Virus record (IMG/VR): IMGVR_UViG_2778261530_000010
Length of the DNA stretch: 30,951 nt
Strand: one strand, 5' to 3'
From: a virus
Taxonomy: Duplodnaviria; Heunggongvirae; Uroviricota; Caudoviricetes
Below the pieces are notes generated by a model. The model did not search any database. It was not told where the DNA came from and was given only the letters and a program-made list of their open reading frames with translations. The position numbers were made by a program, and so were the translations under genes. Shown here in pieces: positions 5,820-8,910 of the stretch. The first letter of the stretch is position 1. The number at the start of each line of letters is the position of its first letter.

Positions 5820-6848
5820 TTATTTCACCTGAACCACCACAAATGCGTCCGGATCCGGCAACACCATCAACGGCGCAGACTGCGTCATGGTATATTCGCA
5901 CCCCGGGTCCCCCACCTCTAACCAGTGTTTCGGATAACGAATTGCAGAGGTGATCCCTTCACTCAGCGCCTGGTTATCCTGGATTGCGCCATAACAACGG
6001 ACACCCTCCACCTGAGTGTTTCCAAGAATCAGTGTGCCTTCCGGCAGATAACGCTGCTCATCCCCGTTTTCATCAACATACGTTGTTTTCGCCACCATGA
6101 TGGCCAGATCACCGTAATAACCTTTAAAAGAAACCACGGACCCCAGATCTTTCAGCGCGGTTTCCAGTTCAGATTTTGAGCCACGGCGGGTATCCAGTTT
6201 TTCACGAAACAGTTTAAAACCGTTCAGCATACGCCAGACAGTACCGTCCATAATCGCAATATTGATGGTACCGGAAGCAAAATCGCAGTACGCATCCAGA
6301 TCATGCGTCGGATCAAAGGTGTCAGTATTCTGTTTTGACCATTCGCGTCCCCCTGCCTGCGTAATGTTATTGGCGGCAGAACGTCCAAAATCCACTTCCA
6401 CCGTCTCAAACTGTTCACCGCTCATGGTGTACTTACCCTGCAGAACAGCGCTGACCGCCTGCATTTCTTCCACCTGCACAATCGCCTGTTCTTCCTGTTT
6501 CAGGTTGTCAGTCAGAATACGCAGGCGACGGTAGGCCGGGTCATTAAGACGGGCCGGATCTTCCCCCGGAAGACGCTCCACCGCCTGCTGATAATCCAGC
6601 CGGTGTTTTGGTTTAACATAGCCGGGGCGTAACACGCGGGTTTCACCACCACGACTGCGCAGTACCTTACCTGACACAACCGGAGACACATATGCCGCAA
6701 CCGGTGTTTTTCCGGTGATTTTATCCAGCATCACTTCCTGAGTATGGAAAGTGACCGTACGACGAAAAAACAGCTCCAGAAACAGCGCACGGAATTTCAC
6801 TTTCTGCTCGGTGTAGCCGAGCAACTGACGCGTGGTAAATAACCCCAT
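5820..6848 (-). CDS. E: Major capsid protein gpE
   Basis: Motifs YVSPVVSG, PGYVKPKH, VQVEEMQAVSAVLQGKYTM and SAPLMVLPDPD resemble lambda gpE; ATG at 6846-6848 preceded by AAAGGAAAG. Confidence 0.92.
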   Translation of the reverse strand: MGLFTTRQLLGYTEQKVKFRALFLELFFRRTVTFHTQEVMLDKITGKTPVAAYVSPVVSGKVLRSRGGETRVLRPGYVKPKHRLDYQQAVERLPGEDPARLNDPAYRRLRILTDNLKQEEQAIVQVEEMQAVSAVLQGKYTMSGEQFETVEVDFGRSAANNITQAGGREWSKQNTDTFDPTHDLDAYCDFASGTINIAIMDGTVWRMLNGFKLFREKLDTRRGSKSELETALKDLGSVVSFKGYYGDLAIMVAKTTYVDENGDEQRYLPEGTLILGNTQVEGVRCYGAIQDNQALSEGITSAIRYPKHWLEVGDPGCEYTMTQSAPLMVLPDPDAFVVVQVK

Positions 6849-6861
6849 AATTGACTTTCCT

Positions 6862-6899
6862 TTAAAAACACAAACGGGCCGCATCACGACCCGTTTTTT
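6862..6899. terminator. Bidirectional terminator-like hairpin between decoration gene D and capsid gene E
   Basis: Plus strand ACGGGCCGCATCACGACCCGT is flanked by an A-run on the left and TTTTTT on the right; on the minus strand the stem is followed by UUGUGUUUUU. Confidence 0.45.
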
Positions 6900-6917
6900 C
6901 AGTTAATCACTTCACCA

Positions 6918-7253
6918 TCAGGCGTGGCTGATGGCACTTCCCACAAACGCGTTGGCTTTTTTCACCGCATCCACCGAATCCGGCCAGACCAGCGATTCGG
7001 TGGCAAACGTACCGCTTTTGTAGTACGTCAGTGTGGGCTCGGTCCCGGCCAGCGCCAGTACCAGCACCCCCACAGCCGTTCCGGCTTTCTGACCATCCCA
7101 TGCCACCAGTTTTCCGCTGGCGTCATCCAGCATCAGTGGCGTCAGTGAAGGCGTGGCAACACTGATACCACTGGTACCTGTTGCGGTATATACCGGATCG
7201 CTTCCGGCAAAAATGCGCCCGTCCGCGCGCTTTTCTGTGGTGGTTTTAATCAT
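6918..7253 (-). CDS. D: Head decoration protein gpD
   Basis: TPLMLDDASGKLVAWDG and YYKSGTF resemble lambda gpD; ATG at 7251-7253 preceded by AGGAGA. Confidence 0.9.
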   Translation of the reverse strand: MIKTTTEKRADGRIFAGSDPVYTATGTSGISVATPSLTPLMLDDASGKLVAWDGQKAGTAVGVLVLALAGTEPTLTYYKSGTFATESLVWPDSVDAVKKANAFVGSAISHA

Positions 7254-7293
7254 TTTCTCAGTCTCCTGATTTATCTGAATCACGGATCCCCGC

Positions 7294-8910
7294 TTACGGC
7301 ATACTCATCAGCAGTTCTTCTTCCCCGTTCCCGGCAGTTCCGCCACCGGAAACGGCACTGGCGGCATGCTGTGCCATGAAGCGCTCAAAAAGTGTTACCT
7401 GTGACGGTTGCGATACTGATGGCGCAGCTGCCAGCAGCGTTTTCGCCTGCTCCACTGTCATTCCAGGTTGTTCAGCCAGCGCCTGTGCCAGTTTTTCGCG
7501 TCCTTTTGCTTCCGGCAACGCAATAATTTGATCGCCGGTACTTGCCGTACCGGTTGCCGGTGCCGCTACCAGTAGCATTTTCGCCTGTTCCACCGTCATT
7601 CCCGGCTGTTCAGCCAGCGCCTGTGCGAGTTGTTCACGCCCTTTTGCTTCCGGAAGTGCCATAATCTGCTCGCCGGTACTTGCCGCACCGGAAACCGGTG
7701 CCGCTGCCAGTAACGTTTTCGCCTGCTCCACCGTCATTCCCGGCTGTTCAGCCAGCGTCCGTGCCAGTTGTTCACGCCCTTTTGCTTCCAGAAGTGCCAT
7801 AATCTGATCGCCTGTGCTGTCAGTACCGGCAACCGGTGCTGCCGCCAGTAATGTTTTTGCCTGCTCAACTGACATTCCCTGCTGACCTGCCAGCATCTGC
7901 GCCAGTTTTTCGCGTCCTTTCGCCTCCTGACAATTCAGGATCCCCATCACGCGCTGATTTTCCCGGGACACCGCTTCAGCAACGGTGAGATTTTTTGTTG
8001 TCATCGTATTCTCCTGTGTAACAGAGTCGTTCAGAGCAGAAACCATTACATCAACGGCATCTGCAGCATTAATCAGTTGATCAGCCAGGCCTGTATCAAT
8101 GCCTGCCTGACCGTCATAAACGGCAGCCTCGGTATTCATCACCGCCTCTGAACTCAGCCCCGTATAAAGCGCCATCTTGTCGACAAACATCCGGCGGGCC
8201 TCATCAATACGGCGCTGAAAATCCGCACGCACACCTGTCGGCAACGCCTGAATACTGTTGCCGTCAACCTTGTGCTGCCCGGAGTAAATCAGCGTGATAT
8301 CCACGCCTTCCTGTGCCAGTTGTTTCTCGTAACTGGTGTGCGCCATCATCACACCAATCGAACCAATTTTTGCCGTCTGCGTGACCAGCCGACGCGTACA
8401 GGCCGCCGCCAGCAACATGGCGGCTGAACAGGCCATGTCATTACACAGCGCCCACACGGGCTTCTGTTCCCGCAGACGGTAAATCATGTCAGCACAGTCA
8501 AACGCCCCGGCAGCCTGACCACCCGGACTGTCGATATCCAGTAAAATGCCGCGTACATCCGGGTCGTTCACCGCTGACTTAAGACGGGCAGTCAGACCGT
8601 CATAACCGGTCATACCGGAATATGGCCGCAGGGTACCCATTTTATGTACCAACGTGCCGCTCACCGGCAGAATGGCAATACCATTTTTCACCTGGTAACT
8701 CTTTACCGGACGCGGACCACCAGTCATATAATCGGTAACCGCCAGCTGCATACCATCGGCATCAAGCTGAACGGCCTGCTGCGGAACGGCAAGGCTGCCC
8801 GCCCCCATCTCCTTACCCAGTGCGCAAAAGAAAACCCGCGCATAGGCGGGTTCCAGTAAAAGCGGCTCATTAAATGCCATCGCGGCAATATGTGATAAAT
8901 TACAGCGCAT
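7294..8910 (-). CDS. C: Prohead protease/scaffold gpC (S49/ClpP-like peptidase) with a C-terminal Nu3-like scaffold region containing four tandem repeats
   Basis: AAMAFNEPLLLEPAYARVFFCAL, PVSGTL, PYSGMTGYDG and ALCNDMACSAA resemble lambda gpC; the start overlaps the portal stop. Confidence 0.9.
   Translation of the reverse strand: MRCNLSHIAAMAFNEPLLLEPAYARVFFCALGKEMGAGSLAVPQQAVQLDADGMQLAVTDYMTGGPRPVKSYQVKNGIAILPVSGTLVHKMGTLRPYSGMTGYDGLTARLKSAVNDPDVRGILLDIDSPGGQAAGAFDCADMIYRLREQKPVWALCNDMACSAAMLLAAACTRRLVTQTAKIGSIGVMMAHTSYEKQLAQEGVDITLIYSGQHKVDGNSIQALPTGVRADFQRRIDEARRMFVDKMALYTGLSSEAVMNTEAAVYDGQAGIDTGLADQLINAADAVDVMVSALNDSVTQENTMTTKNLTVAEAVSRENQRVMGILNCQEAKGREKLAQMLAGQQGMSVEQAKTLLAAAPVAGTDSTGDQIMALLEAKGREQLARTLAEQPGMTVEQAKTLLAAAPVSGAASTGEQIMALPEAKGREQLAQALAEQPGMTVEQAKMLLVAAPATGTASTGDQIIALPEAKGREKLAQALAEQPGMTVEQAKTLLAAAPSVSQPSQVTLFERFMAQHAASAVSGGGTAGNGEEELLMSMP
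7437..7930 (-). repeat. Four tandem in-frame coding repeats of about 123 bp (41 aa) inside gpC/Nu3
   Basis: The DNA unit GTTTTCGCCTGCTCCACCGTCATTCCCGGCTGTTCAGCCAGCG... recurs four times; the protein shows four copies of EAKGRE(K/Q)LAQ.LAEQPGMTVEQAKTLLAAAP....TGDQI.AL. Confidence 0.85.

Follow-up and report, generated by a model that had tools for sequence, protein, structure and literature searches.

A four-unit tandem repeat in the scaffold part of a putative lambda gpC-type prohead protease gene

The repeat and its anatomy

The IMG/VR virus record IMGVR_UViG_2778261530_000010 is a stretch of 30,951 nucleotides from a member of the Caudoviricetes, and the whole of it is termed the window here. 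The open reading frame (ORF) list of the window has an ORF on the minus strand at 7294–8910 (1617 bp, 538 amino acids) that contains a tandem repeat. The original prediction for this locus was of four in-frame tandem copies in the scaffold part of a protease/scaffold gene of the phage lambda gpC type. Tandem Repeats Finder, a profile of the repeat unit and the self-identity of the sequence at a lag of 138 nt all support the presence of four copies, roughly at the place proposed. The gene and the parts of it that concern the repeat are listed below; dN/dS is the ratio of non-synonymous to synonymous substitution rates.

7294–8910, minus strand: gpC-like prohead protease/scaffold gene, 538 amino acids, matching Pfam PF01343 (Peptidase_S49, E=3.1e-32)
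8041–8475, minus strand: S49 (SppA-like) peptidase domain, amino acids 146–290 (Pfam PF01343, E=3.1e-32)
7813–7950, minus strand: repeat unit 1, amino acids 321–366, counterpart of the Tri1 box of phage 21 (core identity 85%), dN/dS 0.05–0.07
7675–7812, minus strand: repeat unit 2, amino acids 367–412, nucleotide identity to unit 3 of 91%, dN/dS 0.11–0.20
7537–7674, minus strand: repeat unit 3, amino acids 413–458, dN/dS 0.23–0.26
7399–7536, minus strand: repeat unit 4, amino acids 459–504, dN/dS 0.09–0.13
7297–7398, minus strand: non-repeated C-terminal tail, amino acids 505–538 (...FERFMAQH...LLMSMP), which the homologues in phage 21 and Gifsy-1 also retain

Tandem Repeats Finder delimits 7427–7927, with a period of 138, 3.6 copies, 84% matches and a score of 638, and a repeat search finds copies of 234 nt at spacings of 138/138 across 7421–7930. 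At a lag of 138 the sequence is 84% identical to itself across 372 nt, against a maximum of 40.6% in 500 codon shuffles of the gene (z about 50). In the protein register there are four complete units of 46 amino acids, at residues 321–366, 367–412, 413–458 and 459–504. A profile of the unit was built from these four, and each of them matches it with an i-Evalue of about 1e-30. The period had been given as 123 bp or 41 amino acids and the array as 494 bp at 7437–7930. The actual period is 138 bp or 46 amino acids, comprising a predicted folded core of ~40 residues and a 6-residue linker, and the array spans 552 bp (7399–7950).

Nor are the copies near-identical, as had been thought. Pairwise identity between units is 58–91% at the nucleotide level, with units 2 and 3 the closest, and 63–80% at the protein level. 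Twenty-five of the 46 columns are invariant among the four units, and I4, E9, A10, G12, R13, A17, L20, A21, A31, L35 and P39 are kept in all of them. The codon differences between units 2 and 3 are three synonymous and nine non-synonymous. In every other pair of units, 13–16 codons are changed by synonymous differences alone.

Substitution rates were determined for each unit by comparison with three four-unit orthologues (L005, L006 and L007), all taken from complete genomes. The dN/dS ratio is 0.05–0.26 in every unit, at synonymous divergence (dS) values of 0.4–0.75. Thus, purifying selection maintains each copy as protein.

Gene identity and predicted structure of the unit

The assignment of the ORF relies on its domain content and its neighbours. 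The S49 peptidase fills the N-terminal two-thirds of the 538-amino acid protein, which matches the PHROG family phrog_53, head maturation protease, at E=5.9e-217. A search of PDB sequences with the protein returns only SppA structures, with 3rst and 4kwb matching amino acids 76–289 (E about 3e-16), that is, the protease domain; the repeat is without any match. The adjoining head genes are as follows.

8900–10423, minus strand: portal gene of the lambda family, directly upstream (Pfam PF05136, E=7.9e-95, and RefSeq annotation of the homologous locus)
6918–7253, minus strand: gpD-like head decoration gene, directly downstream (Pfam PF02924, E=8.6e-22, and annotation of the homologous locus)
5820–6848, minus strand: gpE-like major capsid protein gene, presumed to encode the partner of the scaffold (Pfam PF03864, E=5.6e-65)

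The order portal, protease, gpD, gpE is the same in annotated homologous prophages. In the 99.9% identical Escherichia coli chromosome of KS-NP019, the lambdoid prophage has the order terminase, head–tail joining protein, portal, S49 peptidase, decoration protein, major capsid protein and FI, and the homologous gene is labelled 'S49 family peptidase'. The S49 domain and the location between the portal gene on one side and gpD and gpE on the other identify the product as an S49 prohead protease of the lambda gpC type that ends in a scaffold tail, and the earlier identification of the gene is borne out. Proteolytic activity, and degradation of the scaffold and of the protease itself within the prohead, are predicted from the domain match.

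In a Pfam search no family covers the module. Sub-threshold matches to the tail (Peptidase_C23, Bac_DNA_binding, T2SSK and DUF732), of zero stretch, were set aside as noise, such as a short helical motif occurring four times would produce. PHROG families of scaffolds and proteases each hit the tail in four separate stretches; the scaffold families among them are phrog_8399 ('head scaffolding protein') and phrog_8940 ('capsid assembly protein').

AlphaFold2 was used to model a single unit with an alignment of 91 sequences. The predicted local distance difference test score (pLDDT) is about 90 over residues 1–40 and about 54 over the last six. The unit model has a short helix at 2–5, a turn at 8–10 and helices at 14–22 and 28–37. 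In the model of the full-length protein, the array appears as four helical beads with pLDDT of 70–80, connected by low-confidence linkers at 360–364, 406–410, 453–456 and 499–505. The linkers of ~6 amino acids are rich in Ala, Gly, Ser and Thr. On this prediction, the unit is a helical domain of about 40 amino acids that folds independently, followed by a disordered linker of about six.

A nested scaffold reading frame

In lambda and phage 21, the protease gene has an in-frame scaffold gene nested within it, and signals for a similar arrangement are found here.

7294–8004, minus strand: nested in-frame Nu3/gp6-like scaffold ORF of 236 amino acids, starting at Met303, indicated by a conserved Met and by the start of phage 21 gene 6
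8011–8015, minus strand: Shine–Dalgarno-like AGGAG, 6 nt upstream of the internal ATG (8004–8002)

A Met is present 12 or 14 residues before an ENQRVM motif in 113 of 115 homologues, and is Met303 in this protein. AGGAG(G) is retained at the equivalent place, a few nt upstream of the internal Met, in all eight of the loci examined. In phage 21, gene 6 is annotated as beginning at the Met homologous to Met303 and has its own ribosome-binding site. The conserved Met, the AGGAG and the phage 21 start together make it likely that translation from Met303 yields a Nu3/gp6-like scaffold of 236 amino acids, which would consist of the four units and the conserved tail. In an alignment of homologues, F508 and M512 of the tail are invariant and P538 is nearly invariant.

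Related repeats in other phages

The closest described counterpart is in phage 21, whose gp5/gp6 (M81255.1; OL657228.1) combine an S49 protease and, as is likely here, a nested scaffold gene, and carry the same module. The head operon record M81255.1 annotates a 'Tri1 box', a 'Tri box' and a 'Tri3 box' in genes 5 and 6, with 'function unknown'. The phage 21 repeat begins at the equivalent place (...ENQRVMGIL.CQEAKGRE...), its internal start and ribosome-binding site correspond to the putative ones here, and its module EAKGRE...GMTVEQAK..LAAAP occurs here as tandem in-frame scaffold-tail copies at equivalent positions. The two arrays differ in that phage 21 has three units and this gene has four, so that the copy number in the name 'Tri' does not apply. 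They also differ in that the phage 21 boxes are only 50–58% alike and in that the linkers here give a uniform 46-amino acid period. Unit 1 is 85% identical to Tri1. Units 2–4 are 84–87% identical to one another as opposed to 55–63% identical to Tri2/Tri3, a degree of mutual identity that suggests an array of units 2–4 that is young or homogenised. The repeat is genuine and of the known phage 21 type, with four units instead of three and more homogeneous, younger downstream units, and should not surprise a specialist; repeats of which it is a variant have been annotated in phage 21 since the early 1990s.

The lambda gpC/gpNu3 genes (J02459.1, 4418–5737 and 5132–5737) likewise encode an S49 prohead protease, include an in-frame nested scaffold of the kind that is likely here, show the order portal, C, D, E, and contain a homologous module. 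The lambda gpE and the gpE-like protein of the window are 58.7% identical. The unit profile finds a single domain in lambda gpC, at amino acids 364–404 (i-Evalue 1.9e-17), as had been supposed; it finds three domains in phage 21 gp5 and four in the present protein. Lambda differs in having a long non-repeated stretch before its one module and in the annotated start of Nu3, which is further upstream, inside the protease region (gpC amino acid 239), and gives a product of 201 amino acids. The scaffold had been estimated to be about 120 amino acids longer than that of lambda. The protein is 99 amino acids longer than lambda gpC (538 as opposed to 439); three extra units add 138 amino acids, but the net gain is only 99 because the linker before unit 1 is shorter than in lambda.

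Gifsy-1 (STM2605) and PhiR12-type genes also have tandem modules in the scaffold tail of the prohead protease, but these have three units, and overall protein identity to this gene is about 58–60%. When 1.84 billion representative proteins were searched with the unit profile, there were 500 matches at E<=1e-3. Among the best 150 of these 500, a single copy was found in 131 proteins, two copies in 14 and three in 5. The single copy is typically situated ~43 residues before the C-terminus of S49 proteases of 400–550 amino acids, or is found in short proteins of scaffold size. One copy looks like the common state, and is probably the ancestral one, judging from these counts. Tandem arrays characterise the enterobacterial 21/Gifsy-like group, and a few duplications found elsewhere seem to be independent. 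No paper on Tri boxes, on the function of the module or on variation in its copy number was found in the open-access literature.

Changes in copy number

The four-unit form is widespread. Of 5426 complete E. coli genomes, 94 carry a colinear 720-bp segment with the four-unit scaffold, 84–100% identical, and the whole 1617-bp gene in 105 complete E. coli genomes. Four-unit proteins of 538 amino acids form clusters of 826, 470 and 153 member sequences, and four-unit proteins are recorded also from E. albertii, E. marmotae, Citrobacter and Salmonella.

Among the best 120 homologues, two proteins have two units, 74 have three, 40 have four and two have five. Unit number is a variable of the family and not a defining constant, because relatives carry from two to five units. 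The complete genome of PapRG-04-4 has a 1479-bp three-unit allele, the middle unit of which consists of the front of unit 2 and the back of unit 3. A hybrid of this kind is the mark left by unequal crossover, here between the pair of units that are most alike. The range of unit numbers and the hybrid unit bear out the earlier proposal that the locus changes copy number by recombination. Beside the PapRG-04-4 allele, the portal, gpD and gpE proteins show 99.6%, 99.1% and 99.7% identity to their counterparts in the window, which suggests tolerance of copy-number change and not tight coupling. Strict coupling between copy number and the capsid partners was considered and rejected, as three- and four-unit alleles occur with 99–100% identical portal, gpD and gpE. 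Three or four units thus work with these partners, or at least are carried beside them, which speaks against four being a strict geometrical requirement.

Units also appear to be copied onto one another. The five-unit alleles P0001 and P0002 each have two identical units of 43 amino acids. In E. coli STEC309 (L007, 3001–4617), unit 2 is a copy of unit 1, identical in protein sequence, which indicates gene conversion. P0042 has four nearly identical units, and in P0041 from Cronobacter two of three units are identical. The patterns in STEC309, P0042 and P0041 are signs of concerted evolution.

Comparison with E. coli TW10690 (L005) shows a local divergence hotspot at the scaffold segment, 7294–8013. 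The units are 80–88% identical as opposed to 97–99.5% for terminase, portal, protease domain and gpE and 96% for gpD, and dS is 0.4–0.7 in the units as opposed to 0.09 in the protease domain. The hotspot could result from mosaic exchange of scaffold segments or from conversion between paralogous units.

Several relatives have unusual structures. P0044 (657 amino acids, E. coli) has six unit matches and an apparent block duplication. P0066/P0068 (551 amino acids) are phage 21-like alleles in which an internal stretch is duplicated out of register ('GMTEMTVEKARPIL'). These odd relatives, together with P0043 (610 amino acids) and P0122 (270 amino acids), include fusions to unrelated N- or C-terminal sequence, and some of them may be assembly or gene-calling errors.

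Possible role of the array

What retains scaffolds and proteases of the lambda type within the procapsid is still poorly defined, and we know of no structure for Nu3 or the gpC tail. The anatomy of the array, its homology, the purifying selection on each unit, the copy-number variants and the confidently predicted fold are established in this analysis. The reading that we regard as probable is that of an array of targeting modules, functional at the protein level, multivalent, and evolving by unequal crossover and gene conversion. The array consists of four predicted helical modules of ~40 amino acids on flexible linkers, which would also be present inside the nested 236-amino acid scaffold, and it would have arisen, and would continue to change, through unequal crossover and gene conversion between units. 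Each module may be an independent binding unit that holds scaffold and protease at the inner face of the assembling shell. Scaffold and protease would be anchored alike because the protease shares the scaffold's C-terminal section. The partner of the modules would be the major capsid protein, and possibly also the portal or portal initiator or other scaffold chains. With a number of modules on each chain the binding would become multivalent, and after assembly the S49 protease would degrade the scaffold. The invariant charged 'EAKGRE' loop (E9/R13) is an obvious candidate for the interface.

Two systems provide a background to this proposal. A lambda interaction map contains the pairs Nu3–E, Nu3–Nu3, Nu3–C and Nu3–B (PMC3224144). 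In P22, a small helical element near the C-terminus of the scaffold binds coat protein (PMC11922011); the P22 scaffold is recycled rather than degraded, and P22 is without a protease (PMC8508860). The likeness to the P22 coat-binding helix-turn-helix is functional only, and P22 has a single copy. Neither structural nor sequence similarity was detectable between the P22 coat-binding domain and the unit.

Some observations weigh against the array of targeting modules. The full-length model has a predicted template modelling score (pTM) of 0.43, and the geometry between its domains is unreliable. The best-matching deposited phage genomes contain no four-unit allele and all have three units or fewer (three in phage 21, PhiR12 and Gifsy-1). 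Only its conservation suggests that the four-unit allele supports virion production, and which partner the modules bind and what a copy number of four brings about are inferred. In addition, the fourth copy may be dispensable or redundant, since a three-unit allele is found beside portal, gpD and gpE that are 99.1–99.7% identical.

Among other explanations, it had been suggested that the four copies might reflect a collapse or expansion in the assembly. Tandem repeats of 138 bp are known to trouble short-read assemblers, and the three-unit cluster P0004 (196 members) is found only in short-read assemblies from Logan, so that it too could be the product of a collapse. However, the units differ by 9–42% at the nucleotide level and therefore each can be placed uniquely in an assembly. 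The identical colinear four-unit segment in 94 complete genomes, the gene in 105 and the four-unit proteins in E. albertii, E. marmotae, Citrobacter and Salmonella leave practically no chance of an artefact. For annotation, the repeat should be treated as genuine, with caution for three-unit versions known from short reads alone in view of the collapse hazard. Perhaps the repeat acts instead at the DNA or RNA level, as an array of protein-binding sites, promoters or terminators, or as a structured RNA within the coding sequence. The phage 21 record OL657228.1 (L003) marks two 'CII binding site' matches, at 1209–1222 and 1443–1456, in the scaffold gene, but these are matches to the pattern ttgynnnnnnttgy and nothing more. 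A search of 6800–9000 gave no promoter-like sites, the terminator-like sites in that region are all outside the repeats, and an Rfam search gave no match near the gathering score. No antisense ORFs of at least 60 amino acids lie within the array. Conservation is at the protein level, and synonymous sites are strongly diverged between units. A nucleic acid element was rejected on these grounds and is extremely improbable.

Two further possibilities concern the protein. The extra units may represent a near-neutral, tolerated expansion, a redundant spacer whose units have no function of their own and persist only because the scaffold is broken down in any case. A single unit suffices for lambda, close relatives have three-, four- and five-unit alleles, and the three-unit allele lies beside the same portal, gpD and gpE, as a neutral expansion would allow. 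We nevertheless find this explanation unlikely: dN/dS is low in each unit (0.05–0.26) despite dS of 0.4–0.75, eleven conserved residues are kept in all four units, and four units are held across lineages of 84–100% identity in 94 complete genomes. Alternatively, the module may be a domain for scaffold self-association or portal recruitment and not a capsid binder, in which case additional copies might boost or replace oligomerisation, or build an initiator of portal, protease and scaffold. Lambda Nu3 is reported to form multimers and to be needed for incorporation of the portal, and an interaction of C with B is reported, but yeast two-hybrid data also report Nu3–E (PMC3224144). The conserved non-repeated tail (FERFM...LLMSMP) could then be the real capsid-binding element. 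This alternative has a somewhat better chance than a neutral expansion, though still a small one.

The array of targeting modules allows a broader speculation, which we consider rather doubtful, that the module is an uncurated and structurally unsolved domain for 'procapsid-interior targeting' found in hundreds of S49 lineages, with a copy number of one to five acting as an evolvable dial of valency. If so, unequal crossover would rapidly retune the stoichiometry or affinity of scaffold for capsid, for example after mosaic exchange of capsid genes, and this could account for the divergence hotspot, with 80–88% identity inside flanks of 97–99.5% identity. Natural alleles with one, three, four and five copies, some of them beside identical capsid genes, constitute a series with which binding by the module and its valency could be probed in the assembly of T=7 heads.

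Other features of the window

The protease gene begins within the last 11 nt of the portal gene (8900–8910), and homologous prophages are annotated likewise; the overlap is consistent with translational coupling. A strong terminator-like hairpin at 6872–6896 (minus strand), with an 11-bp stem that includes six G–C pairs and is followed by a T-run, occupies the short gap between the stop of the gpD-like gene (6918) and the start of the gpE-like gene (6848). The hairpin might terminate transcription in part, or might stabilise the mRNA, between the genes for decoration and capsid proteins. Chi sites (GCTGGTGG) are absent from the repeat array and the head genes, and all nine in the window are between 16.9 and 29.2 kb, at 16969–29224. 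Shuffled sequences give an expectation of 1.2 such sites, with a maximum of five in 100 shuffles. The abundance of Chi recalls the 'lambdoid phages with abundant Chi' (PMC12315714).

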